A stretch of DNA of 64,000 nucleotides from Candidatus Heimdallarchaeum aukensis (GTDB lineage Archaea > Asgardarchaeota > Heimdallarchaeia > Heimdallarchaeales > Heimdallarchaeaceae). Of this stretch, positions 28,377 through 56,591 are shown piece by piece. Position 1 is the first letter of the stretch. Every line of letters starts with the position of its first letter. Location: assembly GCA_021513695.1 (NCBI GenBank), contig CP084166.1, forward strand, positions 2,848,001 through 2,912,000, in the 5' to 3' direction. The translations under genes were made by a program, and so were the position numbers. Under the pieces are notes generated by a model. The model made no database searches, was not told where the DNA came from, and saw only the letters and a program-made list of their open reading frames with translations.

Positions 28377-28380
28377 TTTA

Positions 28381-31354: not shown

Positions 31355-31894
31355 TTATCCGACCATTATTTTCCATTTTTCTACGGCATCTGCTACAATA
31401 TCATACAACCATTTTTCTTCAACAGTAAGGTTTCTAATTGTACTTGTAATGTTTTTTGACTTTGTGCTCATATTAATAACTTTATTTAATCTTAAAGTCA
31501 TCAATTCACGTAACTCTATCTCTAAAATCTCTAGTTCTCTAAATGAAATAGTTTTTTGTTCTTTAAACTCTTCAATAGTTTTTTTAGCTATAATATAAAA
31601 AAAAGGATCTATTGGCTGTAGAGCTTTTTTCGCTTTCTCTTTTTCTGTAAGGAAATGAACTGAACTGAGGTTGAATTTTTTCAAAAAGTCATATTCTACT
31701 AAAGATTCCTTGTGAAGAATATATGCAATCCAGAACGGAATCTGAAGAATTGATCCTTTCTGGAGTTTGATTTTTTTTCCTCCTATATCAAATTCTTCTC
31801 TTGATTCTAAGCACTTAACTTCTACTTTTTTTTCTTCGAAATCATGTTGCAATCTTTCAAGTTCTTTTAACACTTCATCTTTTGTTAAATGCAT
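31355..31894 (-). CDS. GINS subunit, Psf2/Gins23-like
   Basis: 179 aa with a beta-rich N-terminal B-domain then a helical A-domain. [28 protein letters not shown] aligns to human PSF2 [42 protein letters not shown] aligns to FTPMPSPYYMELTK. Confidence 0.55.
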   Translation of the reverse strand: [179 protein letters not shown]

Positions 31895-31934: not shown

Positions 31935-34169
31935 TTAAAAGAAATCATCTAAACTTTTTTGTGAGGAAGTAGAAACTGTTTCTTGTTCAAATTCTGTTTC
32001 TAAATCTTCTAAAGAAAAGTCTGCTTCTCCAGTATGAACAAATTTGAGAATTGCTTCAGCTAATTCTTTGCCAAAACGAGGAAGTTTAACTAAATTTTCA
32101 ACTTTTGCTTTTCTTAAATCTTCTAAAGACTTGTATCCATTATCATATAATGCTCGAGCACGTACTCTTCCTATGCCTGGAATCTGTGTAAGATCAAGTA
32201 ATTCTTCTTTTATTCCTACTTTTATCCTTGAATGAAGTCTCTTTATTTTTGTAGCTATTTCAGAATAACCTAGTAGTTCAGCTAATTCTCCTCCAGAATA
32301 GAGTATCCATTCTGCGTTTGAAATTATATTGTAAATATCACCACTTCCAATTCCATATCTGCTGAGTATTGTGTCTTCTGGAACTTCATTAATCCAATCT
32401 CTAATAACCAAAGCTGTCTTTAATTGGCTCAAAAAAATATCTATTTCAGCGTAACTTGAAGGGAGTTCTGTCAAAATCTCATCTTCATGTTCAGTAACAA
32501 AATTCATCAGAGGAGTTTGATCAGGTTTTCTATAAGTGATAAATCTCACATCAGGGGTAGAACAAATAAGATGAAGAATAGATATTTCTGTCACTAACTC
32601 TTTGGGCATTCTATTTGCTCTTTCTAGTCCAGAACGAATAATTACTGCACTTCTGGGGTCAATATATAATTCACTTACTCTTTTTCCGAATCTAGTGGGC
32701 AGTAAGACTTCAGGATTATTCTTAACTAATCCTTCTTCCTTAAAAAAGTCTATTACAGATTTAATTAGAGATGATAGATTTACAGGATTTTCTTTATAGC
32801 CATAGAAAGTTTCACTAATGAAATCAAACAATTCTTCCATAGTTCTTGTGTTTTCAGTTGCTATTTGACCTAAAGTTATACGACGTAAAGCAGGTTCAGA
32901 AGCTAATCGCGATTCTATGTCTTCAGTATCTGCAATAATATATCGAGAATAGAGGTCCTGGGCTTCATCTTCATTTCTGGCTACGACGATAGCATCTCCT
33001 TCTTTGTCATATTGAGGACGTCCTGCTCTTCCTGATTGCTGTTTAAACTCAAGAACAGGAATAGGATGACTCCCTAAACTGGTGCTATATCTGTAAATAC
33101 TTTTGATTATCACAAATCGTGCTGGTAAATTTATTCCTGCAGCGAGTGTAGGAGTTGAAGTAAGTATCTTTATATTTCCTTTTTTAAACTCTATTTCTAT
33201 TATCCTTCTTTGAATAGGACTTAAACCTGCATGATGAAAAGCAACACCAGATTGAACAAGTTTGGCGATTTGTTCTGCTTGTTTTGTCCCAGAACTCTGT
33301 TTAACTATTCTTGCTGCAGCTAAAGATAAACTTTCTTTCTCTTTTTGTGTTAGAATTTTGCTTACTTTAGAAGAAACTTTTTTTGCTGTAGTCTCTGCTG
33401 TTTTTCTTGTAGTAAGAAATACAAGTGTTTGATATTTTTTCTTTAGAACATAATCAAGTAAATTAAGAAAAGAGTCTTTGTAAGTTAATGGGATGGAGAC
33501 ATTTTTCAACCCCTTGTAAATAATAGTATTTCCATAGATAACTCCCTCGTGCAACTCTACAGGTCTCCAAGTACTAGATACAAGATTTGCTTCTAACCAT
33601 CTGGATAGCTCATCAGCATTACGAATCGTGGCGCTAAGAGCAATTACTTGTACTTCAGGGTTCTTTTTTAACTGTGCTAAAACAACTTCTAATGTAGGCC
33701 CTCTGTTCATACTGTTGATTAAATGAACTTCATCAGAAATGACTAAACCAACTTTTGATAGCCATTTGCTTTTATGTCTCAGGGCTGAATCTATTTTTTC
33801 GTTAGTTGCAACTATTATGTCTGCATACATGGCTCGATTATCTTCAATGTCATAGTCACCAGTGAGTAAAATAGTTCTTTTTTTTAATTTAGAAAAGAAC
33901 TTTTTGAATTCGAGATATTTTTCATAAGCTAGGGCTCGTAAAGGAGCAAGGTAAAGGACTTTGTAAGAAGTTTCCTCTACTTTTTTTACTGCAGCTAGGA
34001 GAGCTAAAAGAGTTTTTCCAGAAGCAGTAGGTATTGCTATAACAAGATTATCCCCATCTAACAATCCTTTTTTTACTGCTTCAGTCTGAGGAGGATAAAG
34101 TGAACTTATTCCTTGTTTTTCTAGTTCTTCAATAATTTCTTTAGGAATAGGCAATTCAGCAATCTTCAT
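31935..34169 (-). CDS. Ski2-like DNA helicase Hel308/Hjm
   Basis: Walker A AIPTASGKTL, DEVH box, SAT motif ALSATIRN, QQSGRAGR motif VI. C-terminal helix-hairpin-helix LTQIPGIGRVRARALYDNGY. 744 aa. Confidence 0.8.
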   Translation of the reverse strand: MKIAELPIPKEIIEELEKQGISSLYPPQTEAVKKGLLDGDNLVIAIPTASGKTLLALLAAVKKVEETSYKVLYLAPLRALAYEKYLEFKKFFSKLKKRTILLTGDYDIEDNRAMYADIIVATNEKIDSALRHKSKWLSKVGLVISDEVHLINSMNRGPTLEVVLAQLKKNPEVQVIALSATIRNADELSRWLEANLVSSTWRPVELHEGVIYGNTIIYKGLKNVSIPLTYKDSFLNLLDYVLKKKYQTLVFLTTRKTAETTAKKVSSKVSKILTQKEKESLSLAAARIVKQSSGTKQAEQIAKLVQSGVAFHHAGLSPIQRRIIEIEFKKGNIKILTSTPTLAAGINLPARFVIIKSIYRYSTSLGSHPIPVLEFKQQSGRAGRPQYDKEGDAIVVARNEDEAQDLYSRYIIADTEDIESRLASEPALRRITLGQIATENTRTMEELFDFISETFYGYKENPVNLSSLIKSVIDFFKEEGLVKNNPEVLLPTRFGKRVSELYIDPRSAVIIRSGLERANRMPKELVTEISILHLICSTPDVRFITYRKPDQTPLMNFVTEHEDEILTELPSSYAEIDIFLSQLKTALVIRDWINEVPEDTILSRYGIGSGDIYNIISNAEWILYSGGELAELLGYSEIATKIKRLHSRIKVGIKEELLDLTQIPGIGRVRARALYDNGYKSLEDLRKAKVENLVKLPRFGKELAEAILKFVHTGEADFSLEDLETEFEQETVSTSSQKSLDDFF

Positions 34170-34236: not shown

Positions 34237-37200
34237 TCACGCCATGCGTATTATCCCCTCACGAGGAGAATAGAGTTCACCATTTTCTCTTAATTGTCTA
34301 ATTACTTTGTCTACAAAATCTCCGTCTATTGAGTACTCTTTTTCAGCAATTTGTTTAACTTTGTTAATAGAAACCTCATTGGAAAAACCTTTCTTCGTTT
34401 CTTCTTTTATAATATCGATAACTTTTTGGAGATTACTTCGTTCACTTCTTGATGTTCCTTGTAAAAAGTAATCTACATCTACTTTTCCAGTTACTGGGTC
34501 TCGTCCTACTTGTTGTAGGGATTCTGTAAGAAGACGAATAGCTGCTTCAGCATGATCAATTGTTACATCTTCTTTTAGAGCCATTCTTGCTTGTGCTTCT
34601 GAAAGACGAATAATGGCTTCTAAATACCTGGGTGTAATAGCAATAGATTTTTTGTCTGATTGTTTTCTGAGATCAAGATAGAATTTTTCTATTCTACGCA
34701 TAGCTTCATCAGTTAATGAAGGTTCAATGTTTTGTTTAGCATAACTAATATATTTTCTTAAAAGATCCATAGAAATAGGAGGTTCTGCAGTAGCTGATAT
34801 TTGTCCTCTTCTTAATTCTAAAATATGTCTAGCCATATTAAGGTCGCTGTCTGGTTCTGGAACATCACGCATAATGTAGATAAGATCAAAACGAGAAATA
34901 ATTGTAGCGGGTAGATTAATATTGTCAACTGGGTGAGAGTTTTCCTCATATCTACCAAATTTAGGGTTAGCAGCAGCAATAATAGCTGTTCTTGCATTAA
35001 GCTGAGCAACGATACCCGCCTTGGCTATGCTAACGGTATTGTGAAGTATTAGTCCCCCTGCAATGAAGGTTTTTGTTGGAATTACAGTAACATCATAAAC
35101 CCATTTTGCTTTAAATTTTCCTTTGTTCTCTATTATTTCAACGTTTTTAACTTTAAGCCATTTGAAATTTAGCATACTTTCAATATAGCTTATTTGATTG
35201 TTGACATAATTAATTTCTTCTTTTAGAAATTGCTTGATCTGAGAAAGAAGCGAAGTCCTAACTTGTACGGTGTAGCCCCCATTCTCACAGTAATCTATTG
35301 TTGAACGGGTACTTTTAATTAATCTTGCAATTCCTGCTTGTGAATAACCAACGAATTCTCTCAGTTCACGAACATTATTTATTTCATAGATTTTTTGGTT
35401 AATGATGTTAATTCTTCTTTTTAATTTCTCTAATTCTCGTTCTACAACAAATTTTGCAATACTATTGTTAAATTTAATATTACCATAGAATCTTCCATTA
35501 TATACCATTCCTAGTCTTTTCATGCAATCAATTAAGCTGATTGCTGTTTCGACTGGTAAAACATCTCTTTTTTTGTGGTTTGCTTTAGTTCTGCTAATGA
35601 ATTTTTTTATTTTTGGATTGTCAGAATGGTGTGGAATAATTTTCCTTACAAAATTATCTAGACTTTCTGCTAAAATATAAACTTTATATCTATATTTTGT
35701 TTTTTTACTTTTGGGCGTTGTATACTTACTTTTATGTATTATAGTAAAGATATCTAGACTTAAGAGTAAATCTTGGTAGTCAACTGCAAGCAATTTTGAA
35801 GAAGTTGAAAAACTAACCGCTTCACTTTCTATTGATCCGTCACCATCAAAAGCAGCAGATAAGAAGGCAATCCGACAATCGTTATCTGCTTCAAATATTT
35901 TTTTAGGTATGCGCTTATAAATACTCTTTTTCATTAACTCTGGGAAATTTTTTGCCATAAAATTATACAATGATTTAGATATGATGCGTAAGACACGTCT
36001 TTTTTCAACGTTATCAATTGGTTCAATACCAAAAGTTGACTTAATAATTTCCTTCATTTCTGATACTATTTTTGGATCATAATTACTTAATCCCACTTCC
36101 ATTGATGAACCACTATAAGAATAACCTTCTGAAACGAAAAAGCCTAAAAACTTGGCTAAAGAGGTATTCATTTTTGTTGGTAGTCGAATTTTTTTATTTC
36201 CTAGTGAGATATCAGTATCTAAAGTGCTATTTGTATTAAAAACTAGATTTTTTACAGCTGGTATAAAGGATCCTTTTTTAACATTTTCAGCAGCTATTTC
36301 TCTTATGATCCCTTTGTGAAAAACGAAGATTGGGTGTTCTGGTGTTACAACAATATCTCTACCATTAGAATATGTGATTTTAATAAAATAGTCTGGTGCT
36401 GTATGACGACTGACACGGTCAATAATTATCGGAAAAGTGTCTTTGAAATCAGTTGTTTGAATGTTGATATTTAAATCTGAAATAGGTAAAATCTCACAAT
36501 TAATACCGTTAACTTTGCGTTCCGGATACTTATCAAATAAAGAATCTACTAGTGAACCAATTTGTGTTACAGTTCCATCAGATAATCTAATTTCAAACAT
36601 AGGATGAAAAGAATGCTGTTCCATAGCTTCATGTATAGCTGAACGATCATGTGCAGTCATTTTGTCGAATTCATCAATTGTGGCTAAACCACGATCTGCC
36701 AGTACTAAAGCTCCCGCTTCCAAAGAAAACTCTCCTGTGTCAGGGTCTCTAACTACTGCTGCAGTGTTGTGAGTAATAAACCCATTAACTATAAAATTGT
36801 GCGTTTGTGGGACAGTTAAGTCATAAACATATTCATCTTCTTTTTCGATAAATTCAACTTTAGTTACTTCATCCCAAAATATTTCGCTTGAAAGGAGCGA
36901 TTCTATAAGTTTAATATCTTGCTTCAACTCAGTGTTTGTTTTACAACTTGATTTAATTTCGCTGATGATACTCTCAATTTCTTTTTTATTGCTATTCTTA
37001 AAATCCAAAATTATGTTGTTATTAAAACTAAGGGTTGTGTTATTACAAAGATTGATTTTTTCTATTAATTCACCTAATAGTTGTTCTATGCAAGAAGCTA
37101 CTTTTCCATCTACTAAACTATCCTTTAAGTCTTTAGAATTTCTTTCTTTAGGGTTAATTGTTCCAACTAAATCTCCTTTAATCAAATCTTTAGCTTTTAT

Positions 37201-38637
37201 CCATACTATTCCTCTCTCTGAAAGAGTGAGAAGAGGAGTCTGTTGAGTTAATTTAATTGTCCTACCACTTTTAGATGAAATCTTTACTAATAAACGAGGA
37301 CTTTTGATTTTCCAGAATTTTTCAATTTTAGCAGAATTGATTTTTAAGTTAGAAGAATTTAAAATAGAATTATAATTTGAATCTGTTTCTAGATTATTTT
37401 CAACAAACCAGAAACCTTCTTGGTATTCTTGTGGTTTGTTGTTTTTAAACTCTCTTTCTACAATGTTTACTATTTTTTCAACCTTATTTTCAAAATATAT
37501 TTCACTATCTGCTGCAACACATAGTCCTGCTGCTGAACTTGCTCGCCCTGAAGTAAAAATACCTCGGGGAGCTAATCTGTTTGCAAAATGAAGAAGTTGG
37601 CTTTTTCCTACACCAGGATCACCAACTAATAATAGATTTGATTCTCCTCTCTGTTTCATTCCATCCGGTGTAACTCTGGAAACTCCTCCAAAGAGTACAG
37701 TAGCAATTGCCTCTTTGATGATTTCATGACCGTAGATAGAGGGAGCGATTGAACGAATGATTTTGTTATGAATGTTAATGTCTCTGGAAAGTTCTAGAAT
37801 CTCTTTTTCGGTGTCAGGATCAATTTCTAATTCTTCGAATTCCTTCTGTCTAGATGCAGCAAAATTGACCTCTAACCAAGGATCAAAAGTAGCCAACTGT
37901 TTCTTTTTTTGTTGTAAAGACGGTTTCATTCTAAGAATACCGTTAACAATTGCTCTATCTCCTGCTCTAACAACATCTACTAAATCTCCAACTAAGTATG
38001 CAGGAAGAGAGCGAGGAATTTGACCAGGAGGAAGGTTTTCTGGCTTTTCTTGAATAGTAATTGTCTGGATATCAGTGTAAGATGATTCTTCTGGAAGGAG
38101 CTTGAAAGGACCTTTTTTTCCACAATCGGGGTTACTACACTGGACAGGTTCAGAATAATAACCTAAATCTTGATCCCAGCTCATTATCTCCCCACAACGG
38201 GTACACTGGAAAACTCCTTGAATAAGAAGAGGTTTGACAACAGATTGACGAAGAACAATACCTTCAACCGAAATAAATTTCCCTAAATGAGTAGCTCGAA
38301 CATGACGTAGATCAACTATGTCCGGGATGTTTGCAAATCTTACTTTGAACCATTGTCTATTTTCTTGTGCATAACTCAAATCTTCTATAGAAATGACTTC
38401 AAAAAGTGCTTCATCTGCATCTTGAAACATAGTTTCAGGTTCGTCTCTAATCATCTGTGCAAGTCCAGGGTCATAACGCAAAATGTCATCATAATTGACA
38501 TAGAGAGAAGTTAAGCCCTCTAAAACCATCTTCTGAATTTGTTCAGTGTAAACATATCTACCATTTTCGTCCATGTAACCTTGAAAAAACTCTTTGAATC
38601 GTTCTGAATACCCTTTTGCAGTTGTATCAATATGCAT
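34237..38637 (-). CDS. mcm: MCM replicative helicase precursor containing two inteins
   Basis: N-terminal Zn finger CTRCGEIMSW...CSNPDCG. P-loop GDPGVGKSQ. GRASSAAGL|C...HN|TAAVVRD and IDEFDKM...EAMEQH|S...HN|TVSIAKAGI mark intein junctions. Extein sum is 689 aa. C-terminal winged helix. Confidence 0.9.
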   Translation of the reverse strand: MHIDTTAKGYSERFKEFFQGYMDENGRYVYTEQIQKMVLEGLTSLYVNYDDILRYDPGLAQMIRDEPETMFQDADEALFEVISIEDLSYAQENRQWFKVRFANIPDIVDLRHVRATHLGKFISVEGIVLRQSVVKPLLIQGVFQCTRCGEIMSWDQDLGYYSEPVQCSNPDCGKKGPFKLLPEESSYTDIQTITIQEKPENLPPGQIPRSLPAYLVGDLVDVVRAGDRAIVNGILRMKPSLQQKKKQLATFDPWLEVNFAASRQKEFEELEIDPDTEKEILELSRDINIHNKIIRSIAPSIYGHEIIKEAIATVLFGGVSRVTPDGMKQRGESNLLLVGDPGVGKSQLLHFANRLAPRGIFTSGRASSAAGLCVAADSEIYFENKVEKIVNIVEREFKNNKPQEYQEGFWFVENNLETDSNYNSILNSSNLKINSAKIEKFWKIKSPRLLVKISSKSGRTIKLTQQTPLLTLSERGIVWIKAKDLIKGDLVGTINPKERNSKDLKDSLVDGKVASCIEQLLGELIEKINLCNNTTLSFNNNIILDFKNSNKKEIESIISEIKSSCKTNTELKQDIKLIESLLSSEIFWDEVTKVEFIEKEDEYVYDLTVPQTHNFIVNGFITHNTAAVVRDPDTGEFSLEAGALVLADRGLATIDEFDKMTAHDRSAIHEAMEQHSFHPMFEIRLSDGTVTQIGSLVDSLFDKYPERKVNGINCEILPISDLNINIQTTDFKDTFPIIIDRVSRHTAPDYFIKITYSNGRDIVVTPEHPIFVFHKGIIREIAAENVKKGSFIPAVKNLVFNTNSTLDTDISLGNKKIRLPTKMNTSLAKFLGFFVSEGYSYSGSSMEVGLSNYDPKIVSEMKEIIKSTFGIEPIDNVEKRRVLRIISKSLYNFMAKNFPELMKKSIYKRIPKKIFEADNDCRIAFLSAAFDGDGSIESEAVSFSTSSKLLAVDYQDLLLSLDIFTIIHKSKYTTPKSKKTKYRYKVYILAESLDNFVRKIIPHHSDNPKIKKFISRTKANHKKRDVLPVETAISLIDCMKRLGMVYNGRFYGNIKFNNSIAKFVVERELEKLKRRINIINQKIYEINNVRELREFVGYSQAGIARLIKSTRSTIDYCENGGYTVQVRTSLLSQIKQFLKEEINYVNNQISYIESMLNFKWLKVKNVEIIENKGKFKAKWVYDVTVIPTKTFIAGGLILHNTVSIAKAGIVAQLNARTAIIAAANPKFGRYEENSHPVDNINLPATIISRFDLIYIMRDVPEPDSDLNMARHILELRRGQISATAEPPISMDLLRKYISYAKQNIEPSLTDEAMRRIEKFYLDLRKQSDKKSIAITPRYLEAIIRLSEAQARMALKEDVTIDHAEAAIRLLTESLQQVGRDPVTGKVDVDYFLQGTSRSERSNLQKVIDIIKEETKKGFSNEVSINKVKQIAEKEYSIDGDFVDKVIRQLRENGELYSPREGIIRMA
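35038..36612 (-). mobile_element. intein 2 in MCM (525 aa, Ser1...His-Asn, +1 Thr) with LAGLIDADG homing endonuclease domain
   Basis: Insertion inside the conserved EAMEQ(Q/H)-TISIAKAGI block. Starts SFHPMF, ends AGGLILHN. LAGLIDADG-like motifs LAKFLGFFVSEGY and IAFLSAAFDGDGSI. Confidence 0.8.
36766..37521 (-). mobile_element. intein 1 in MCM (252 aa, Cys1...His-Asn, +1 Thr), mini-intein or degenerate endonuclease
   Basis: Insertion between the conserved MCM residues SSAAGL and TAAVVRD. Starts CVAADSEIYF, ends FIVNGFITHN. No clear LAGLIDADG pair. Confidence 0.8.
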
Positions 38638-40327: not shown

Positions 40328-41377
40328 TTATAGATCCCAAAAAGAAGATAAATGTTTTTTAAATATAGCAAGTTGATATCTTGTTGTTTTGAATATTTTC
40401 CAGTTATCTTGATAAGTCAAAATTTTTGGTTTAGTTCCCATTATACCACTCAAAAAACTATTTGTACAAAAACTTAAGCTATTAAGGTCATATCCTCCTT
40501 CTGTAACAGCAATAATTCTCCCTTTTGAATATTTGTCAGCAATTTGAGAAAGTATAAATCCTGCTGCTTGAAAGGCTTCAATTTTTAAGTTAAGCATCCC
40601 TACTGGATCTGTTTCCAAACCATCGAAACCTACAGAAACTAAAACTACTTCTGGTTTAAACTGTTCTAGTATCTTTATTGATTGTTGAAATGTATAAATC
40701 CAATTTTGGGTGTTAATTTTAGGTAAGACTGGACAGTTTACTGTATATCCTGTTCCATCATAAATTCCACTCTCAAAAGGGTATCCCCTTCCTGGATATG
40801 CATAAGCTGGATGAGCATGGATTGAATAATATAAAACATCATTTCGTGAATAAAAGATGTCTGCAGTACCATTACCAAAATGTTGATCAATATCAACAAT
40901 AGCGATTTTACTAAAACCTTTGGATATCAGCGTTTCTGCGGCAATTGCAATGTTATTAAAAAAACAAAATCCTGCAACTGTTGAAGAATTAGTATGATGT
41001 CCTGGAGGTCTTACTATAGCAAAAGCTTTCTCTGTTTCATTATTAGAAACGAGCTCAGCAGCTTGTTTAGATGCCCCTGCAGCATAACATGCAGAAGAAA
41101 AAGTGTGTTTATTCAAAACATTATCCCATGTGATTACTCCTCCACCTTGAAGAGATATGGATTTTATTATATTAATTAGATTTAGATTATGAACCAGCAG
41201 AAGGTCTTCTTCCAAGATTTTCTCTGATTTTACATATTTGCATTTGTAGTTGTTCTTGTCTTTAAACAAATTAAAACCTTGGATGAATTTATCTAACCTT
41301 AGTGGTTTTTCTGGGTGCTGGGGATCCATTACATGCTTTTTCATCTCTTCATTGGAGAGTGTAATTAAATTATACAT
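40328..41377 (-). CDS. histone deacetylase / acetoin-utilisation AcuC family hydrolase
   Basis: IVRPPGHH, VDIDQHFGNGT and SVGFDGLETDP zinc-binding and catalytic motifs of the arginase/deacetylase fold. 349 aa. Confidence 0.8.
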   Translation of the reverse strand: MYNLITLSNEEMKKHVMDPQHPEKPLRLDKFIQGFNLFKDKNNYKCKYVKSEKILEEDLLLVHNLNLINIIKSISLQGGGVITWDNVLNKHTFSSACYAAGASKQAAELVSNNETEKAFAIVRPPGHHTNSSTVAGFCFFNNIAIAAETLISKGFSKIAIVDIDQHFGNGTADIFYSRNDVLYYSIHAHPAYAYPGRGYPFESGIYDGTGYTVNCPVLPKINTQNWIYTFQQSIKILEQFKPEVVLVSVGFDGLETDPVGMLNLKIEAFQAAGFILSQIADKYSKGRIIAVTEGGYDLNSLSFCTNSFLSGIMGTKPKILTYQDNWKIFKTTRYQLAIFKKHLSSFWDL

Positions 41378-41493: not shown

Positions 41494-42042
41494 TTGAGTG
41501 ATAAAATGGGTTTCATGTTGGATGTTGGATTGGCTTTTATGTTTGCAAGTCCTATTTTTATTTCTAATGCAATCCCCACAATTTTTGGAGGCGGTTATCC
41601 AGTCGATTTCTATAAAAACTTCATAGATGGAAAGAGAATATTAGGCAATCACAAAACCATTAGAGGGTTGCTCGCGGGGATATTATTCGGTTTTGTAGCT
41701 AGTATAGTTGTTTGGTATACAGTGGGTGACTTATTTCAACAATTATATGGTTCAATGGGTTTGAAATATCCAATCTGGATTGGTTTGGTGATGGGTTGGG
41801 GTTGTAATTTTGGAGACATGTTTGGTTCTTTTATTAAACGTCGCCTAAATATCGCTTCTGGGGGTAAGTTTCCTGTTTTTGACCAAACTGGTTATATGAT
41901 CTTTGGGCTGTTATGGTCTTGGCCAGTGTTTAAGTTTATTCCTTGGCAATTTCTAGTAACATTACTTATTATTTCTCCACTGTTACATATTCTTGCAAAC
42001 CTGCTTGCCTATGCTGTTAAAGCAAAAGACGTATGGTGGTAA
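41494..42042 (+). CDS. carS: CDP-archaeol synthase
   Basis: 182 aa with ~5 TM helices. IFGGGYPVDFYKNFIDGKRILGNHKTIRG...CNFGDMFGSFIKRR...FPVFDQ...ISPLLHILANLLAY closely follows the CarS (DUF46) pattern from my recollection of the A. fulgidus enzyme. Confidence 0.75.
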   Translation: MSDKMGFMLDVGLAFMFASPIFISNAIPTIFGGGYPVDFYKNFIDGKRILGNHKTIRGLLAGILFGFVASIVVWYTVGDLFQQLYGSMGLKYPIWIGLVMGWGCNFGDMFGSFIKRRLNIASGGKFPVFDQTGYMIFGLLWSWPVFKFIPWQFLVTLLIISPLLHILANLLAYAVKAKDVWW

Positions 42043-42171: not shown

Positions 42172-42474
42172 ATGAAAGAATGCACGCTTTATTGCCGATC
42201 TTTTCGCTGCACTAACAGAGCATTAAAAGTTGAACGCCAAGGAAATGGTTCAAAAAAATTCATCTGCAAGATGGAAGGAGACGAATGCATTGGCTATTTT
42301 TGTAAATATGCTTCTTGTGCAGAAAAAATGTTAGCTGATGATGGTCGTTGTTTACGACCAGATAAGAAAGTTGCTTCCAAACCTAAAAGACCTATTAAAA
42401 TTGACAAATACGATGTCTTTGATACTAGTTCTTTAGATGATAGACTGTACAAAAAATTGAGGAGAAAAATGTAA
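42172..42474 (+). CDS. cysteine-rich small protein (putative zinc ribbon)
   Basis: 100 aa with 11 Cys, including CTLYCRSFRC and FICKMEGDECIGYFCKYASC. Lys-rich C-terminus. Immediately upstream of the pseudo-KaiC/GTPase pair. Confidence 0.35.
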   Translation: MKECTLYCRSFRCTNRALKVERQGNGSKKFICKMEGDECIGYFCKYASCAEKMLADDGRCLRPDKKVASKPKRPIKIDKYDVFDTSSLDDRLYKKLRRKM

Positions 42475-42529
42475 TTATCTTCTACCTAACTTTTAAATAC
42501 CAAGTCGAATAAGTATTTTATCGAATGAG

Positions 42530-43315
42530 TTGAGTTATATGTTTCCCAATGCAGTTCAACCACAAAAAAATCTTCTACCTTTTGGTATTCCAAGTTTAGA
42601 TGAAATTCTAGGAGGAGGTATTCCAACAGGTTCTATAGTCTTAATAGAAGATGAAATAGGTGCAGAGGCTAATCCATTTATTTTACAGTTTTTAGCTGAA
42701 GGATTAAAAGCAGGTCAATATGGATATATTATGGCAACAGAACACCCATATGAATACTTTTCTGAAATGTTATCAGGAATAGGCGTTAATACAGACATGC
42801 TTAAAGCTACAGGAAGATTGAAATATATTGATGCTTTCTCCAATCCCTTTGGATATACTGACCTTCGTTCTGAACATGATCTTGCAGTAAGAAATATTAG
42901 TCAACCACGTGAATTAAATGAAATTATAAGAAGAGCTTTTCTTCATGTGAGAGATCAAAATGTAATCAAAAGAGGAATTGTAAGCTCGCTATCATCTATT
43001 ATTTATGCTACTGATGAATCAAAGAAGACGATTTTTTCTTTCTTACAAAATAGACTCGCAAGCAATAAACTTGATGGCTCAGTAACTCTATTCTCTTTGC
43101 ATTATGATGCACATCCAAGGTTACTAGTTAAAGCTATAGAACACTTGAGTGACGTAACAATCAGAGTGAAAAAAGGTTTCACAAAAGAAGAACGACCTCT
43201 AAACGAAGTACAAGTAATCAATATTAAAGGTAAACCCGAACTTGCCGGGGAAAGTGTACAATTTGAGTTCATTTCTGGAAAAATTATCCCATATTATGAA
43301 GAAAACCTATTCTAG
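42530..43315 (+). CDS. KaiC/RecA-like domain protein lacking a P-loop (pseudo-ATPase)
   Basis: LPFGIPSLDEILGGGIPTGSIVLIEDEIGAEANPFILQFLAEGLKAGQYGYIMATEHP matches the KaiC-like start (GIPGLDELLGGG...G). The Walker A GxxGxGKT position reads EDEIGAEA. 261 aa, overlapping the downstream GTPase ORF. Confidence 0.55.
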   Translation: MSYMFPNAVQPQKNLLPFGIPSLDEILGGGIPTGSIVLIEDEIGAEANPFILQFLAEGLKAGQYGYIMATEHPYEYFSEMLSGIGVNTDMLKATGRLKYIDAFSNPFGYTDLRSEHDLAVRNISQPRELNEIIRRAFLHVRDQNVIKRGIVSSLSSIIYATDESKKTIFSFLQNRLASNKLDGSVTLFSLHYDAHPRLLVKAIEHLSDVTIRVKKGFTKEERPLNEVQVINIKGKPELAGESVQFEFISGKIIPYYEENLF

Positions 43316-43937
43316 TTTTGATCAAAGTATTTTTTTTTCATTTATTAACACCATTAGATTTATTAATTTAGATTGTTTGTTTTATTTGATAAGTTTGTCA
43401 TTCGATTATTTGTTCAAGACAATAATTGTTGGAGACCCAAATGTTGGAAAAACTTCAATTACACTCCGATTTTCAACTGGAACTTTTAGAGAAAGATATC
43501 TTTTTACTATAGGCGTAGAATTTAGTGTTAAAGATATTGAAGTCGATGGAAACAAGGTAAAAATTCAAGCTTGGGACACTGGAGGACACGATAAATATTC
43601 CTATATTCGTCCGTTGTATTATAAGGGGTCATATGGAACATTAATTGTTTATGACATTACCAACAAAGCATCATTTGAAAATTTGAATAAATGGTTTAAA
43701 GAAGTATATGATAACTGTGAAACAACAATTCCTGCTATTCTAGTTGGAAATAAAAACGATTTGGAAGAACAGAGAGAAGTAACAAGAGAAGAAGCTTTAA
43801 AATACGCAGAAGAAATGAGTAAAGAATATAATTTGGAAAATATTCCTTATTTTGAAACTTCAGCAAAAACAGGTGAAAACGTCGACGATATCTATTTTGA
43901 ACTAACAAGATTAATGATTAAAAAATCAAACATGTGA
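43296..43937 (+). CDS. Rab/Ras-like small GTPase with His at the catalytic Gln position
   Basis: G1 GDPNVGKTS. Rab-like switch I YLFTIGVEF. G3 WDTGGHD, where canonical is DTAGQE. G4 GNKND, G5 ETSAKT. Start is ambiguous: Met at 43296, an upstream Met at 43242, or an internal TTG. There is a ~50-aa N-terminal extension before G1. Confidence 0.8.
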   Translation: MKKTYSSFDQSIFFSFINTIRFINLDCLFYLISLSFDYLFKTIIVGDPNVGKTSITLRFSTGTFRERYLFTIGVEFSVKDIEVDGNKVKIQAWDTGGHDKYSYIRPLYYKGSYGTLIVYDITNKASFENLNKWFKEVYDNCETTIPAILVGNKNDLEEQREVTREEALKYAEEMSKEYNLENIPYFETSAKTGENVDDIYFELTRLMIKKSNM

Positions 43938-44096: not shown

Positions 44097-44657
44097 GTGA
44101 AAATTATGAAGATAACTGACATCAGACTAAATGGTAGGGGTGGTCAGGGAGCAGTAACTGCTTCACGTTTACTAGGTGAAGCAGCTATAAAAGAAGGACA
44201 GTATACCCATGCTTTTCCTAATTTTGGTCCAGAACGGGCTGGAGCACCTGTCACTTCTTTTACTCGTATTTGCCCTGAACCCTTTACAGAAAAAACTGAA
44301 GTTTTTGAACCTGACGTAGTTGTTGTAATTGATCCTACCCTTTTAGGAGAAGTCCCTGTTGCTCAAGGACTTAAGAAAGGAGGAACTATTGTTTGCAACT
44401 ATAGTGGAGAACTCGAAGAATTGAAAAAGTATTTTGAAGGAATTGATGCAAGTATACACAAAGTAGATGCATCCAAGATAGCTATTGAAGAATTAGGCGT
44501 AGATAAGCCAAATATGATAATGCTTGGAGCTTTACTGAAAGTACGTCCATTAGTCAAACTTGAGAGCTTGATCGAAGTAACAAAAGAACGTTTCAAAGGT
44601 TCAGTAGGAGAGAAAAACGCAAAAGCTATGCGTCGTGCATATGAAGAGGTGGAATAA
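44097..44657 (+). CDS. porG: 2-oxoacid:ferredoxin oxidoreductase gamma subunit
   Basis: LNGRGGQGAVTASRLLGEAAIKEG gamma-subunit signature. 186 aa. First gene of a GDAB operon. Confidence 0.8.
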   Translation: MKIMKITDIRLNGRGGQGAVTASRLLGEAAIKEGQYTHAFPNFGPERAGAPVTSFTRICPEPFTEKTEVFEPDVVVVIDPTLLGEVPVAQGLKKGGTIVCNYSGELEELKKYFEGIDASIHKVDASKIAIEELGVDKPNMIMLGALLKVRPLVKLESLIEVTKERFKGSVGEKNAKAMRRAYEEVE

Positions 44658-44975
44658 ATGGAGAAAAAAACCCCCCCAAAGGAATTTGAAGAGTGGATAA
44701 GTGAAAAATGGGGAACAGAAAGACTACCCGTTGGTGGTGTAGTTCCTTATCAAAGCTCTTATGGATATAAAACTGGTGATTGGTCAGCTTATAAGGCTCA
44801 TATTGATAAAGAAAAATGTATAGGCTGTCTAAATTGCTTCTTTTATTGTCCTGATTCAGCAATTGCCATGGATGAAAATAATAAAGCGGAAGCAGACTTT
44901 GATTTTTGCAAAGGATGTGGAGTTTGTGCTCAACATTGCCCTGTTGATGCAATCGAAATGAAATCATTGAGGTGA
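44658..44975 (+). CDS. porD: 2-oxoacid:ferredoxin oxidoreductase delta subunit (2x[4Fe-4S] ferredoxin)
   Basis: [12 protein letters not shown] and [12 protein letters not shown] cluster motifs. 105 aa. Confidence 0.8.
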
Positions 44976-46171
44976 AAAAAAAGATGATGGAACCAATAGT
45001 TAAAGGAATGACAGGAGATGAAGCTGTCGCTTGGGCAGCAAAACAAATTAATCCTGATGTTGTAGCAGCTTACCCAATTACCCCTCAAACAATAATCGTT
45101 GAAAGATTCTCCGATTATGTAAATGATGGGCTTGTTGATACCTCTTTTGTCCCAGTAGAGTCAGAACACTCTGCTATGTCTGCTTGTGTAGGAGCTTCAG
45201 CAACTGGAGCAAGAGTATTCACAGCAACAGCTTCAGCAGGTTTAGCCTTGATGTATGAAATTCTTTATGTTGCATCAGGAATGAGATTACCTATTGTTCT
45301 TGCAGTAGCAAATAGAGCATTTTCAGCTCCTATAAACATTCACGCAGAATGTACAGATCAATTAGTAACAAGAGATGCATCTTGGGTTTCTCTATTTGGA
45401 GAATCAGCACAAGAAGCCTATGATGAAACAATAATGTCTTTCAAGATTGCAGAAAATCCAAAGGTTCTACTTCCAACAATGTTTGGTGTAGAAGGATTTA
45501 TTGTTACACACGCTTTGGAAAGAGTTGACACTCTCCCAGATAAAGCGATAAAAGACTTTTTACCAGAAAAAAGAGAAGTTGAATATGCCTTTACTCCAGA
45601 TGAAATCAGAACATTTGGGTCTTTAGTTTTACAAGACTATTATATGGAAATAAAAAGGCAACAAGAAGATGCAATGCAAGAAGCTTATAAAGTAACTAAA
45701 GAAGTAATGAGCGAATATTCTGAATTAACAGGAAGAAATTATGAAATTATTGAGAAGTACAAACTTGAAGACGCAGATTATGCTTTTGTCTCATATGGAG
45801 CAACAGCAGGTAATGCCAAAGCTGTAGTAGATAATCTGAGAGAAAAAGGAGAAAAAGTCGGTAGTCTTAAAATAAGAATGTATAGACCATTTCCAGCACC
45901 AGACATATATGATGCATTGAAAGGAATAAAAGCAGTATCAATTTTAGATAGATCAGCTACTTTTGGCTCTCCAGGAACAATTGTTCAATCAGATCTTGCA
46001 ACTGCTCTATTCGGAAAGAAAGATGTACCAACACTACATGGATACATAAACGGTCTTGGAGGAAGAGTACTAACCATTCCAGAAATTGAGCAAATTTACA
46101 TGAAAACAAAGGCATACCACGACGAAGGAAAAGCACTAACTACAGAATGGTTTGGATATAGGAAAAGGTGA
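44972..46171 (+). CDS. porA: 2-oxoacid:ferredoxin oxidoreductase alpha subunit
   Basis: [28 protein letters not shown] alpha-subunit start. 399 aa. 4-nt overlap with porD. Confidence 0.8.
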
Positions 46172-47142
46172 TTATGATGATAGAATTACCAAGAATTAAA
46201 TTAAAAGAAATAGCAAAGCAAGACGATGTTCTTGTCTCTGGACATAGATTATGTGCAGGATGCGGAGCTGGAACAATGGCCAGACAAGTAACTCTAGCAG
46301 CTAAAGCTCTAGGAGAACCTTTCATGATTGTAAATGCTACAGGTTGTTTAGAAGTAGCAACTACTATCTATCCATTCAGCGCATGGAACGCTCCTTGGTT
46401 ACATAACGCTTTTGAAAACGCATCTGCAACAGCTTCAGGAGCTCTCGCTGCCATGGAAGCTATGCAGAGAAAAGGACTGATGAAAGAAGAAAAAGTGAAC
46501 ATGATTATTTTCGGCGGAGATGGTGGAACTTATGATATTGGACTTCAATCTCTTTCTGGAGCAATTGAGAGAGGACATGATTTCTTGTATGTATGTTATA
46601 ACAATGGAGCATACATGAATACTGGAATACAAAGAAGTGGTGGAACTCCTCAATGTGCAATAACCACAACAAGCCCAGCTGGAACGGTTATCCCAGGAAA
46701 AATAAAATGGCAAAAACCTCTCGCTGAAATTATGGCTGCACATGATATACCAACCTTTACTGCTAGTCCATTCTATCATAGAGATTTAATGCAAAAAGTT
46801 CAAGCAGGACTAAAACATGATGGGCCAGCATTCTTGCTAGTTGATTCTCCATGCAATTTAGGACAAAGATACGCACCTAACATCTCTCTTAAAACAACAG
46901 AATTAGCAGTAAAAAGTTGCTTCTTCCCATTATATTCAACTTACAAAGATGAATGGGTATTAACTAGCGAATCATTAAAGATTGCAAAGAACCCTGAAAA
47001 GAAAGTTCCAGTTGAAGAATATCTCAAACTACAAGGAAGATTTAAACATCTTTTCAAACCTGAATGGAAAGGAAAGATAAAAGAGATTCAAGAACAAGTA
47101 GACGAGAGATGGGAAAGACTGCTAAAGAAAGCAGGATTCTAA
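46168..47142 (+). CDS. porB: 2-oxoacid:ferredoxin oxidoreductase beta subunit (TPP-binding)
   Basis: Cys cluster ligands CAGCGAG...C. TPP motif FGGDGGTYDIG...NNGAYMNTG. 324 aa. Confidence 0.8.
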   Translation: MIMMIELPRIKLKEIAKQDDVLVSGHRLCAGCGAGTMARQVTLAAKALGEPFMIVNATGCLEVATTIYPFSAWNAPWLHNAFENASATASGALAAMEAMQRKGLMKEEKVNMIIFGGDGGTYDIGLQSLSGAIERGHDFLYVCYNNGAYMNTGIQRSGGTPQCAITTTSPAGTVIPGKIKWQKPLAEIMAAHDIPTFTASPFYHRDLMQKVQAGLKHDGPAFLLVDSPCNLGQRYAPNISLKTTELAVKSCFFPLYSTYKDEWVLTSESLKIAKNPEKKVPVEEYLKLQGRFKHLFKPEWKGKIKEIQEQVDERWERLLKKAGF

Positions 47143-52897: not shown

Positions 52898-54853
52898 TCA
52901 ATTATTTTTTATCCTTTTTCTTGAACTCAAAAGTATAATAGCAAAAATGAACACGATTTCACAATACATTGTCTTTGATGTAGTTATATTGTTGGGGACA
53001 TAGAAGTTGATGTTGTGCGTCTCTGAAACATATACATTACCATAGACATCATAAGTTTTTATTGTGTAAGGAACAAGTGAATCTGTATAATTGATTACAT
53101 AATAATATAAAGTATAGGAATAAAGAGTATTATCTACCTTAACCATTGGAACAGAAACAATACCGAAAAGTGTAGTAGTAACTGATAATAATACTAGTTC
53201 TAAGTCTGCACCTGTAACATTTGCAGTAATAGTTATTTTCGTATAATCGAAACCAGCTGGCTTTCTTGGATTAGCAGGACAATGTTCTATATTAGAAACT
53301 GATAGGTTGACATTATCGATTAAGTTAACGTTTTTAATCATCTTAAAAGGAGAAACAGATGCTAAACTCGCATAGTTTTTAGAAGTGAATAGAAAATCGT
53401 AATAACCATCTCCATCTGTGTCGACTGGATTATGTAAAAGAGATGGACTAAAGTAATTGAACCAACTATCATCATTTTGTTGAAAATTGGTTTGTTCATT
53501 AGTTTGTTTATAGAGTAATTTTCCTCTATCTTTTGTCTTAAGAAAAGAAGAAATAACATTAGGGGGTAAGCTAAAATCTTCATCAATATCAATAAAATTG
53601 TTTTTCTGGAGAGTAAATTTTTTGTATTTTGGTGATTGATCGAATTCAATAAACGTTTCATATTGAGATGTAGTTAATGCGAAAAGATTTCCTTGCCATA
53701 AACCTGAAAGTTCTTGAGTATTCCAAACTAAAAAGGGGATATGAAGAAATATGTTATTCAATAATTTCAAATAGTGAACGCCAGTTATATTTACGAAGGT
53801 ATATGCATAATATCTTCCAGTGTTGAAAATATTTTCTTCAAAAGTAATATTGTCAATCTGGTTTAAGTCCAGAATAAAAATGCTTCTCGTCATTATATTA
53901 CAGTTGTGCAAATTGAAACTATTAAATAAATTATGAAAAAAGTAGTAACTTCCGTTTCCTTGAATTTCTATTAACTTTGCGACTAAATTAAATTCAAAAT
54001 AAAACGATGCTGTTGCAAAAGCTTTTTCTGATTTTACAATATTATTTTCTACTCTAGCAGACGAATTTGAAAGATATAGGAAAGCATAATAATTGTAAAT
54101 GGTGTTGTTGATAAGTTTTATATCTGCTCCATGAGCTTGAATTGAAGCTCTTTTATAAAAAGACATTATGTTGATAATAGCATAAGTATCTAATTCATCT
54201 TCCGATACCAGAAAATCAAGAGTCGAATTATTTATTTCTAAAGAAGAGTTTTCATAGGTATTAAATTCAAAAATGTGAGCTATCTTTGAAAAATTTGAAT
54301 AATCAATTTTTTTTAATTTTAAGACCGTATTAATTATTGTTAAATTACCGTAAATGGAGATAAAGTGTGTAGAGAGGTTCCATGTTTTTACTGTGTTTAT
54401 ATCCTCTGATGAGAGATTAAAAAATACTTGACACATGTTAAAAGTCAGGCTCCCTTGAGGTTGAATTGTTATGTTTCCTTCAATAATAATGCTACAATTA
54501 ACAAAACTCATTTTTTTATCTACTATCAAGTTATTGAATGTGCATGAGTTAGAAAAACTCCTTACTTTCCCGAGTTTTTTATTTGTTTGAGACTCCTGTG
54601 ATACTTCACGATCTTGTTCATTTTTATTTTCAACTTCGTTCGTTTCTATTATCCCTTTATCCCTAATTACGCTATTATTAACATTGCTAAACTCATTAAA
54701 GGCACTTAACGTGTTAAATAATAATATGATAAAAATAAATATACATATGCCTTTTAATATTATTTTCTTTCTCATTATAATTGTCTTTTCTTTTTTGTAT
54801 AAATGTTTTACTATTTTTAAAAAAAGGAAAGGACTTATGTTGGGCCTATCCAA
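52898..54853 (-). CDS. secreted/membrane-anchored beta-helix-like surface protein (third family member)
   Basis: N-terminal signal/TM IILKGICIFIFIILLFNTLSA. Asn-rich repeats with NN(I/T)... beta-helix rungs. One DTDGDGYYD Ca-binding-like motif. C-terminal TM YCEIVFIFAIILLSS. 651 aa. Confidence 0.5.
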   Translation of the reverse strand: MDRPNISPFLFLKIVKHLYKKEKTIIMRKKIILKGICIFIFIILLFNTLSAFNEFSNVNNSVIRDKGIIETNEVENKNEQDREVSQESQTNKKLGKVRSFSNSCTFNNLIVDKKMSFVNCSIIIEGNITIQPQGSLTFNMCQVFFNLSSEDINTVKTWNLSTHFISIYGNLTIINTVLKLKKIDYSNFSKIAHIFEFNTYENSSLEINNSTLDFLVSEDELDTYAIINIMSFYKRASIQAHGADIKLINNTIYNYYAFLYLSNSSARVENNIVKSEKAFATASFYFEFNLVAKLIEIQGNGSYYFFHNLFNSFNLHNCNIMTRSIFILDLNQIDNITFEENIFNTGRYYAYTFVNITGVHYLKLLNNIFLHIPFLVWNTQELSGLWQGNLFALTTSQYETFIEFDQSPKYKKFTLQKNNFIDIDEDFSLPPNVISSFLKTKDRGKLLYKQTNEQTNFQQNDDSWFNYFSPSLLHNPVDTDGDGYYDFLFTSKNYASLASVSPFKMIKNVNLIDNVNLSVSNIEHCPANPRKPAGFDYTKITITANVTGADLELVLLSVTTTLFGIVSVPMVKVDNTLYSYTLYYYVINYTDSLVPYTIKTYDVYGNVYVSETHNINFYVPNNITTSKTMYCEIVFIFAIILLSSRKRIKNN

Positions 54854-55032: not shown

Positions 55033-55833
55033 TTAATACCATTTCTTAAATGGAGGAAAGTGAAGAACATCATTAGCACTTTCTAATAGAACAAAAGATT
55101 CAAATTCTAAGAGTTCGACATTATTTCTTAAAATAGGAGAAAGCAATGAAGACTGATCCTTGGGCATGATGGGATTTCCACCTGAATAAGAAGAAAAGGC
55201 AGGAAGAACAATTAATTTTCTATGATTTGCGTTTTTTACCTTTTCTCCATCAAGAGGGCCAATAAGTAAAGATTTCTGTTTTACCACTTGCAATTCATCT
55301 ATTTTAATATGAAATAATGGGTGTTCATGGCCTATTAGAACAAATTCAACACTTTCAGGTAAATCCTCTGGAAGATTTTTATGTCCGTGTGTAAAGAAAT
55401 AACGTTCAATTACTAGATCTTCAACAAGTTTACAATTTTCTATATCTCTAGTAACCCAAGAAAGGAAAACATCGTGATTGCCTTTCACAATGATTATTTC
55501 TTTTATAAAAAGTGAAACTATATTTAAAAATTCTTTAACTTCTTTATTTTCAACTTTTGTTGGTTCGTTAAAACTATGTTTTAGATCACCGTTGATAATT
55601 AATTTTTTAGGTTTTATATTTCTAATGTAAAACAAAATTTTCTTAGTAAGTTTCTCACTCTGCGTTTCAAGAACAGTTACACCATCTTCTGCCATAATAG
55701 TTTCTAATCCTAAATGAACATCTGCAATTACTAAAGAATGAATATCCTTAAGATAAACAACTGGTGAAGCATCTAGAATATTGATATCTTCAGCTATTGG
55801 AAAAAAAATTATTCCTTCTTGCGAATCATGCAT
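55033..55833 (-). CDS. calcineurin-like metallophosphoesterase
   Basis: Motifs VIADVHLG (DxH), INGDLKH (GDxxD-like), VKGNHD (GNHD/E) and LIGHEHP (GH). 266 aa. Confidence 0.7.
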   Translation of the reverse strand: MHDSQEGIIFFPIAEDINILDASPVVYLKDIHSLVIADVHLGLETIMAEDGVTVLETQSEKLTKKILFYIRNIKPKKLIINGDLKHSFNEPTKVENKEVKEFLNIVSLFIKEIIIVKGNHDVFLSWVTRDIENCKLVEDLVIERYFFTHGHKNLPEDLPESVEFVLIGHEHPLFHIKIDELQVVKQKSLLIGPLDGEKVKNANHRKLIVLPAFSSYSGGNPIMPKDQSSLLSPILRNNVELLEFESFVLLESANDVLHFPPFKKWY

Positions 55834-56108: not shown

Positions 56109-56591
56109 TTGATGAACTATCGTAAAAAAATTGTAGTGTTTATACTTTTAGTTGTAGGTCTTTCTTTAGTTGGATCAAGAGTTTCAGCTTGTACCGAGGT
56201 TTACTCTTCCGAAACTAACATTCTCTCAACTCACATATTAACTGCCTATTATTCTGATTTAGAGGACAAAGGAGTAGAAAATGATATTTTTACATCCATT
56301 TACATTTCTTTTGACTCTCCGTATTATTATAACCATTTGTATTGTTATGTTGAACTTACACTTCCTTCAGGATACTACTATTCTTATCTGATATCTATTG
56401 AGTTCTATGGAGTATATGAAATTACTCTTCCAATTTACATGTATAATCATGCAACTGAAAGTGGGGATTATATTTTATATGTAGCTTCATTTTTCGCATG
56501 TAGTAATCATTATTTAGCTGAATCACTTGTTATCTTTGATCCTCCTGGTGGAACTGATGGAGCAGATCCTCCCAGAATAGAAGTTGGATAA
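56109..56591 (+). CDS. small secreted protein
   Basis: 160 aa. N-terminal signal-like IVVFILLVVGLSLVGSRVSA. Tyr-rich. No known motif. Confidence 0.3.
   Translation: MMNYRKKIVVFILLVVGLSLVGSRVSACTEVYSSETNILSTHILTAYYSDLEDKGVENDIFTSIYISFDSPYYYNHLYCYVELTLPSGYYYSYLISIEFYGVYEITLPIYMYNHATESGDYILYVASFFACSNHYLAESLVIFDPPGGTDGADPPRIEVG

Follow-up and report, generated by a model that had tools for sequence, protein, structure and literature searches.

A P-loop-less KaiC-like protein and a Rab-like GTPase with a switch II histidine are probably neighbours in a conserved gene order, not a translationally coupled module, in Candidatus Heimdallarchaeum aukensis

Do three small genes packed one behind the other in an Asgard archaeon encode a single regulatory device, or do they merely stand side by side? 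The question is raised by positions 42172-43937 of a stretch of 64,000 nucleotides (nt) of Candidatus Heimdallarchaeum aukensis (contig CP084166.1; the whole stretch is hereafter named the window). Here, three open reading frames (ORFs) run in the same direction, at 42172-42474, 42530/42539-43315 and 43242-43937 when the longest frames are called. They encode a small protein with eight cysteines, a KaiC-like protein predicted to lack the phosphate-binding loop (P-loop), hereafter named pseudo-KaiC, and a Rab-like GTPase with a histidine where the catalytic glutamine normally stands. The original prediction, made from the sequence of the window, described a tightly packed trio whose last two genes overlap, and interpreted it as a translationally coupled switch module. 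Our best explanation, to which we assign a probability of about 0.7, is that these are three neighbouring genes in a conserved gene order and not a translationally coupled module. In the best reading, they would be independently transcribed or loosely linked, and our verdict is that the trio consists of lineage-specific variants of known families.

Whether the last two genes overlap depends on the start of the GTPase gene. In the long ORF of 231 amino acids (aa), the Pfam alignment to the Ras domain begins only at residue 59. Lengths are 172-200 aa among the closest 30 homologues and 180-188 aa among the orthologues, and homologues with a complete N-terminus open with M-x(0-4)-FDYLFK. In addition, the nearest genome, Ca. 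Heimdallarchaeum endolithica PR6 (CP084167.1, locus L009), in which the middle protein shows 98% amino-acid identity, carries an in-frame stop inside the end of the upstream gene that abolishes the overlap. The earliest possible GTPase starts in that genome are TTG codons 66-84 nt past the stop of the upstream gene. Four other relatives (L017, L041, L013 and L019) have an in-frame stop only two codons ahead of LFDYLFK, leaving a TTG as the sole possible start. This codon corresponds to TTG 43395 (MSFDYLFKTIIVGD...) of the window. Given the N-termini of the homologues and the in-frame stops in relatives, the start of the GTPase gene is assigned to TTG 43395, possibly to 43386, and the predicted gene spans 43395-43937 on the forward strand (180 aa). 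Upstream, the pseudo-KaiC gene extends from ATG 42539 to 43315 on the same strand and encodes 258 aa, matching its orthologues, the longest ORF (261 aa) beginning at TTG 42530.

Since the true start lies 79 nt after the pseudo-KaiC stop, the overlap and the translational coupling are artefacts of longest-ORF calling and of a mis-called start, and so is the GTPase's N-terminal extension of about 50 residues. Hence, the co-directional arrangement of the trio stands and the overlap does not. The supposed extension (SIFFSFINTIRFINLDCLFYLISL) is the translation of an AT-rich spacer at 43316-43394. Read by sequence, this spacer holds a run of nine T at 43330-43338 and a TATA-like element, TTTATTAA, at 43359-43366, which may act as an archaeal terminator-like oligo-T and as a promoter, respectively; the GTPase gene would then be transcribed on its own. 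A scan for sigma-70 promoters and intrinsic terminators gave no enrichment, such a sigma-70-based scanner being inapplicable to archaea. Spacers of 78-81 nt are also found in L009, L026 and L028. Among relatives as a whole, spacers range from 78 to 1035 nt and often enclose a gene on the opposite strand. No overlapping or abutting stop and start, as expected of a translationally coupled operon, is therefore kept in relatives.

The neighbourhoods of 55 loci were compared by tblastn and with called genes. Pseudo-KaiC is at least 67% identical to that of the window in the Heimdallarchaeaceae loci, and 35-50% identical in 14 more distant loci, from Kariarchaeota, Hodarchaeales-like genomes and others. 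In the window, the trio is preceded by a histone-deacetylase-family gene (HDAC, 40328-41377, reverse strand) and by the gene for CDP-archaeol synthase (CarS, 41494-42042), and is followed by a cluster of four genes for 2-oxoacid:ferredoxin oxidoreductase (POR, 44097-47142). This block, from the reverse-strand HDAC gene through CarS, the Cys protein, pseudo-KaiC and the GTPase to POR, is conserved whole in Heimdallarchaeaceae. The His-type GTPase is found in all 21 species loci of this family with downstream sequence, at gaps of 78-1035 nt from pseudo-KaiC. The gap measures 78-81 nt in three of the 21 species and 159-256 nt in three others. In 13 of the 21, it reaches about 670-735 nt and contains an opposite-strand gene for a P-loop kinase-like protein of 187 aa. 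One locus (L012) has a gap of 1035 nt, and in another (L029) the GTPase gene is inverted. The kinase-like protein (L001, 5777-6340, reverse strand; GPPAVGKMAVGK) shows weak similarity to AAA_18, cytidylate kinase and PSTK. Its gene is missing from the window (43316-43394) and from L009, L026, L028, L017 and L041, and L013 keeps a remnant of 39 aa.

At the 14 distant loci, neither a Ras-family gene nor the Cys protein was found within 5-8 kb on each side of pseudo-KaiC (less at contig ends). The GTPase and Cys genes adjoin pseudo-KaiC only where HDAC, CarS and POR are syntenic as well, so that no adjacency outlasting the decay of gene order is seen. Because the flanking housekeeping genes are equally syntenic, the adjacency of the trio carries little information. 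The neighbourhood analysis across Asgard genomes that the original prediction had called for thus restricts the co-occurrence of pseudo-KaiC and GTPase to Heimdallarchaeaceae, with none of the 14 distant loci showing it. That prediction was right to set the pair apart from the usual roadblock/longin-GTPase arrangement: no roadblock or longin gene flanks the GTPase of the window. A link between roadblock/LC7 proteins and pseudo-KaiC itself was rejected, a Robl_LC7 gene (L004, 5829-6125, reverse strand) convergent with a distant pseudo-KaiC being the single occurrence by tblastn. One contig labelled ‘Candidatus Thorarchaeota archaeon’ (JBHLQZ010000197.1, locus L010) carries the full block of CarS, Cys protein, pseudo-KaiC, kinase-like protein, GTPase and POR at 58-72% identity; it is probably a mis-binned or mislabelled contig of a metagenome-assembled genome.

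What, then, are the three proteins? The middle one matches Pfam KaiC (PF06745) with an E value of 3.5e-17 and, far under their cut-offs, several NCBIfam models of archaeal KaiC and ArlH. Searched against the PDB, a family profile of 22 sequences matches KaiC and PH0284, a single-domain KaiC-like protein of Pyrococcus (E 1e-22 to 1e-18). The protein has a RecA-like α/β core, about 230-260 aa long, that includes the N-terminal motif G-I-x-x-L-D-x-x-L-G-G-G-x-P. In hidden Markov model (HMM) alignments to KaiC and PH0284, residues E37-D38-E39-I40-G41-A42-E43-A44 (42647-42670, forward strand) sit opposite the Walker A motif GGPGTGKT of PH0284, which places Glu43 at the position of the Walker lysine. 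E37, D38 and G41 are invariant in the 22 family members, the lysine position is acidic in every one of them, and an acidic loop, E-D-E-[IVL]-G-x-[ED], is kept family-wide in place of the P-loop. No GK[ST] occurs in any member of the family alignment. At Walker B, VVIDS of KaiC aligns to IVSSL, the aspartate being a serine here and retained only in some clades. At the catalytic glutamate pair, FEE of KaiC aligns to TEH, so that the first glutamate is replaced by threonine and one glutamate is kept. By alignment, four acidic side chains would line the former phosphate site.

The HMM search that had been proposed for this protein therefore bears out two points of the original prediction, namely that EDEIGAEA stands where Walker A should be, and that a KaiC/RecA-like protein has lost its P-loop and, as we find in addition, its Walker B aspartate. 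As judged from its sequence, pseudo-KaiC is a bona fide P-loop-less pseudo-ATPase. Canonical ATP binding and hydrolysis would be lost, and the protein is probably a ring or scaffold that does not depend on nucleotide, similar to the proteins nearest to it in structure, namely the PH0284 hexamer, SSO2452 and FlaH. Analogy with PH0284 and KaiC suggests that the ring would be hexameric. In addition, a motif H-x-D-A-H...(I/L)EH (H188, D190, H192, E201 and H202; about 43100-43144 of the window) is invariant in the 22-member alignment, and only its second histidine and the EH are common to ordinary KaiC-like proteins. This His/Asp cluster might bind a metal or a ligand.

A word-indexed search retrieved 35 members of the pseudo-KaiC family, all from Heimdallarchaeia and annotated at most as ‘RAD55 family ATPase’. 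In an exhaustive profile search, 18 cluster representatives fell below 1e-30, and ordinary KaiC-like proteins came next as a continuum; the representatives with the acidic loop are labelled Heimdall-, Hod-, Thor-, Prometh- and Baldrarchaeia. The 34 loci at species level belong to genomes of Heimdallarchaeota or Kariarchaeota. On these matches, the family appears as an Asgard-restricted subfamily that covers Heimdallarchaeaceae, Kariarchaeota and Hodarchaeales, together with records labelled Thor- and Baldrarchaeia.

The most informative neighbour of pseudo-KaiC is found outside Heimdallarchaeaceae. In eight of the 14 distant loci (L005, L008, L033, L034, L035, L037, L038 and L039), a TIGR00024 metallophosphoesterase, SbcD-related and PdeM-like, adjoins the gene. 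It either directly follows pseudo-KaiC, often with a stop/start overlap of 1-4 nt, or lies divergently upstream. Such genes are located at 5834-6595 in L005, 5935-6699 in L008, 7607-8386 in L033, 8792-9601 in L034, 2729-3496 in L038 and 8810-9556 in L039. At a ninth distant locus, the phosphoesterase lies 2.4 kb away. As these phosphoesterases are only 33-45% identical to one another, their adjacency to pseudo-KaiC has outlasted far more divergence than that of the GTPase. The window has an orthologue at 55033-55833 on the reverse strand, 12 kb from pseudo-KaiC, which tblastn finds at 30% identity (E 2e-31) with the neighbour in L005 and which matches NCBIfam TIGR00024 above its cut-off (E 1e-38). 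Elsewhere, two distant loci (L004 and L006) have a divergent RsmB-like methyltransferase instead, and three have a tRNA-splicing endonuclease upstream. The phosphoesterase is thus the only genomic partner of pseudo-KaiC supported across real divergence. This partnership suggests a role for pseudo-KaiC in nucleic-acid end processing or repair, and we regard it as the best lead to its function. To our knowledge, no function of the TIGR00024 family is known from experiment in archaea.

The third gene encodes a clear Rab/Ras-like GTPase, as the original prediction had stated. The protein matches Pfam Ras (PF00071) with an E value of 1.5e-53, and its best matches in the PDB are Rab35 (E 2.6e-45), Rab8A and Ypt1, in a range of about 1e-45 to 1e-40. 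G1 (GDPNVGKT), the switch I threonine within TIGVEF, G3 (WDTGG), G4 (NKND) and G5 (SAK) are all present, with G1, G2, G4 and G5 intact. The homologue search places the protein with many Asgard Rab-like proteins, which have been classed as ‘RasL’ and not as true Rabs (bioRxiv 10.1101/2024.02.28.582541). The alignment that the original prediction had asked for also settles the position of its histidine, since WDTGGHD aligns column for column to WDTAGQE of Rab35. His65 (codon CAC, 43587-43589, forward strand) faces Rab35 Gln67, the equivalent of Ras Q61. The motif WDTG[GS]HD[KR] is found in 24 of 24 syntenic orthologues with an invariant histidine. Likewise, a proline at Ras position 12, within G-x-P-x-VGKT, and an aspartate at position 62 are invariant at all 24 loci. 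Among 120 listed homologues, histidine is restricted to an orthogroup of at least 60% identity, seen only at this locus; the others have glutamine, or glutamate in five cases, and the more distant Asgard proteins among the matches listed read DTGGQE, DTAGQE or DTGGEE. No cysteine for prenylation is found at the C-terminus, the protein ending in ...LMIKKSNM, and no orthologue has a C-terminal cysteine. This pattern of conservation indicates that purifying selection maintains the histidine along with Pro12 and Asp62, and that the three form a conserved, co-varying remodelling of the active site and not a sign of decay.

The first gene of the trio (42172-42474, forward strand; 100 aa by ORF call) is less easily placed. 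Its orthologue lies directly upstream of pseudo-KaiC in 22 of 22 Heimdallarchaeaceae loci with enough upstream sequence. Twenty orthologues are 37-47% identical to the protein of the window and keep all eight cysteines, which are spaced by x3, x4, x18, x6, x4, x4 and x10 in the window and by x6/7 at the fourth interval in orthologues. A basic C-terminal tail, LDDK(L/F)RKK(L)xRK, is also conserved among them. The protein has no match in Pfam or NCBIfam, a word-indexed search returned only three homologues, and an AF2 model built on a four-sequence alignment was uninformative, with a pLDDT of 44. The ‘Zn-ribbon’ label of the original prediction is not borne out: the eight cysteines are invariant and include no CxxC knuckle, and with no CxxC pair the protein does not qualify as a classical zinc ribbon. 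It probably binds metal, and the sequences retrieved describe a fast-evolving protein of Heimdallarchaeaceae only. It is always adjacent to pseudo-KaiC and may serve as a metal-binding partner or cofactor.

We can now ask whether these proteins could nevertheless work together. In the arrangement first proposed, the Cys protein, pseudo-KaiC and the His-type GTPase would form one regulatory switch specific to Heimdallarchaeaceae, in which the ring of the pseudo-ATPase scaffolds or regulates a slow GTPase. The three genes are indeed co-directional and adjacent in the window and occur together in 21 of 21 species loci with enough sequence, and the His-type orthogroup is known from this locus only. 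However, the genes neither overlap nor are coupled, the spacer carries the T9 run and the TATA-like element, an opposite-strand gene splits the pair in 13 of 21 species, and the GTPase of L029 is inverted. The adjacency is a Heimdallarchaeaceae trait amid housekeeping genes that are just as syntenic, and no Ras-family gene stands at any of the 14 distant loci. We therefore consider an uncharacterised three-gene switch improbable. A little less credible still is its most elaborate form, a joint lineage-specific switch made of a nucleotide-free RecA-type ring, the eight-Cys protein and a RasL GTPase with Pro12, His61 and Asp62 and a Sar1-like histidine mechanism; we know of no organism in which such a ring is paired with a small GTPase carrying a Sar1-like histidine. 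Several points do count against our preferred reading of conserved gene order. Wherever a Heimdallarchaeaceae genome offers enough sequence, pseudo-KaiC has the His-type GTPase for a neighbour, which leaves some room for a lineage-specific functional link. The promoter and terminator in the spacer were assigned by eye, the phosphoesterase link is confined to one clade and is absent from Hodarchaeales-like and P0019/P0020-type loci, and all that is said here of oligomeric state, of nucleotide binding and of the kinetics of the GTPase is deduced. Conserved gene order without coupling nonetheless accounts best for the whole of the evidence.

Two further alternatives concern single proteins. A histidine in place of the catalytic glutamine might leave the GTPase hydrolysis-dead, that is, a pseudo-switch constitutively bound to GTP. 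The Q61H mutation lowers hydrolysis in Ras, and position 12 is here a proline instead of the glycine or serine usual in Ras and Rab. On the other hand, Sar1 uses a histidine (His79) at this position, and its H79G mutant hydrolyses more slowly (PMC2150902). Elongation factors also position the water with a histidine, His84 in EF-Tu (PMC2150902, PMC2265111), and RabGAPs supply a glutamine in trans (PMC2265111). Impaired hydrolysis cannot therefore be deduced from the sequence. Since the G motifs, including the switch I threonine, are intact and Pro12, His61 and Asp62 are conserved as a set, the active site appears remodelled rather than decayed, and a dead GTPase is unlikely. With its nucleotide-binding motifs intact, the protein would still be a GTP-binding switch and probably still cycles. 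The histidine most likely positions water as in Sar1 and EF-Tu; otherwise, hydrolysis may need a partner in trans. Pseudo-KaiC, for its part, might be taken for an archaeal counterpart or ancestor of Elp4, a subunit of the Elp456 ring of eukaryotic Elongator, and so act on tRNA. It scores 45.7 bits against Pfam PAXNEB (PF05625), over the cut-off. The word-indexed search gives an insect Elp4 (E 9e-7) as its first match beyond the family, and a BLASTP alignment to one Elp4 covers most of the length at 26% identity, with LIEED versus LIEDE, and IEHLSD, among the similar stretches. In some clades, the neighbours include tRNA-related genes, namely EndA, an RsmB-like gene, RNase P subunits and ProRS. 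However, ordinary archaeal KaiC-like controls that do bear a P-loop also exceed the PAXNEB cut-off, with scores of up to 52 bits. In hhalign, Elp4 scores 80.7 against the family and 82.6 against ordinary KaiC-like proteins, and the family scores 251.5 against the latter (E 2.8e-37). At E <= 1, the family profile matches no Elp4 chain of the PDB, and reciprocal local phmmer shows a preference for Elp4 only in the three nearest low-GC orthologues. Sequence and profile comparisons thus reveal no affinity for Elp4 above the generic KaiC-like level. No Elp3 gene lies beside any examined locus, no search having been aimed at Elp5/6-like paralogues or at Elp3 linkage, and the literature searched offered nothing relevant on Asgard or Heimdall archaea with regard to Elp4 or Elongator. 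On the PAXNEB controls, the reciprocal phmmer and the three-way hhalign, orthology with Elp4 was rejected as very improbable, with the caveat that the comparison rested on three insect Elp4 sequences only. We conclude that the resemblance most plausibly reflects generic KaiC-like similarity together with parallel loss of the P-loop.

The remainder of the window, whose G+C content is 30-35%, contains no tRNA gene according to ARAGORN and no Rfam family at the gathering threshold over its 64 kb. It also has a gene cluster for DNA repair and replication. This comprises a HerA-NurA pair and a Hel308-like helicase (DEAD, Helicase_dom4_arc and HhH) at 26886-29523 and 31935-34169, both on the reverse strand, which lie upstream of the gene for the MCM replicative helicase (34237-38637, reverse strand, 1466 aa). 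The latter is interrupted by intein sequences: in Pfam, its P-loop domain falls into three stretches, and two Intein_splicing stretches are detected along with a LAGLIDADG domain. The oxidoreductase beta subunit of the window (46168-47142, 324 aa) is free of inteins. In a related Heimdallarchaeaceae genome, that subunit (TPP_enzyme_C; L001/L002, 9252-10780+) measures 692 aa, with an intein that includes a LAGLIDADG domain. Finally, five ORFs of 160-651 aa have no Pfam match at E <= 1e-5 (52898-54853, 59131-59763 and 31355-31894 on the reverse strand, 56109-56591 and 56639-57781 on the forward strand); three of the five border the TIGR00024 phosphoesterase gene.

The search for forerunners of eukaryotic machinery in Asgard archaea is intense, and a pseudo-ATPase/GTPase module or an ‘archaeal Elp4’ would draw attention. 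The case for the module rested on a mis-called start codon and on synteny at the level of the family, and the PAXNEB match is generic to KaiC-like proteins. What is new lies in the individual proteins, none of which was found in the literature searched. The acidic-loop KaiC-like subfamily is Asgard-restricted, annotated only as ‘RAD55 family ATPase’, and operonically linked in one clade to an SbcD/PdeM-like phosphoesterase. The RasL orthogroup, with its Gln-to-His exchange and its P-loop proline, would be a natural test case for the rebuilding of Ras-like active sites. The third is the eight-Cys protein, which is small and fast-evolving.

Compared with the archaeal single-domain KaiC-like or RAD55-family proteins (PH0284, SSO2452, ArlH/FlaH; PF06745, COG0467), pseudo-KaiC differs in its acidic loop with glutamate at the lysine position, in the replacement of the first catalytic glutamate by threonine, in a Walker B aspartate that is not conserved and in its Asgard-only range. 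With Elp4 (PAXNEB), it has in common a RecA fold without canonical P-loop and acidic residues (LIEED) at the same place. The TIGR00024 phosphoesterase is a conserved neighbour of pseudo-KaiC in one clade of Heimdallarchaeia, Kariarchaeota and relatives. The window differs in that its orthologue, although present, lies 12 kb off on the opposite strand. The GTPase resembles Asgard RasL proteins and the eukaryotic Rabs Rab35, Rab8A and Ypt1 over a full-length alignment (E about 1e-45), with G1-G5 and the IGVEF, YYKGS and VYDIT motifs. Unlike them, it has His-Asp for Gln-Glu in switch II, a proline at Ras position 12 and an insertion of seven residues before G5, and it lacks the C-terminal prenylation cysteine. 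Like Sar1 and EF-Tu, it places a histidine directly after DxxG at the catalytic position (PMC2150902, PMC2265111). Both belong to other GTPase families, Sar1 to Arf/Sar and EF-Tu to the TRAFAC translation factors, and the likeness, which concerns one residue, is probably convergent.

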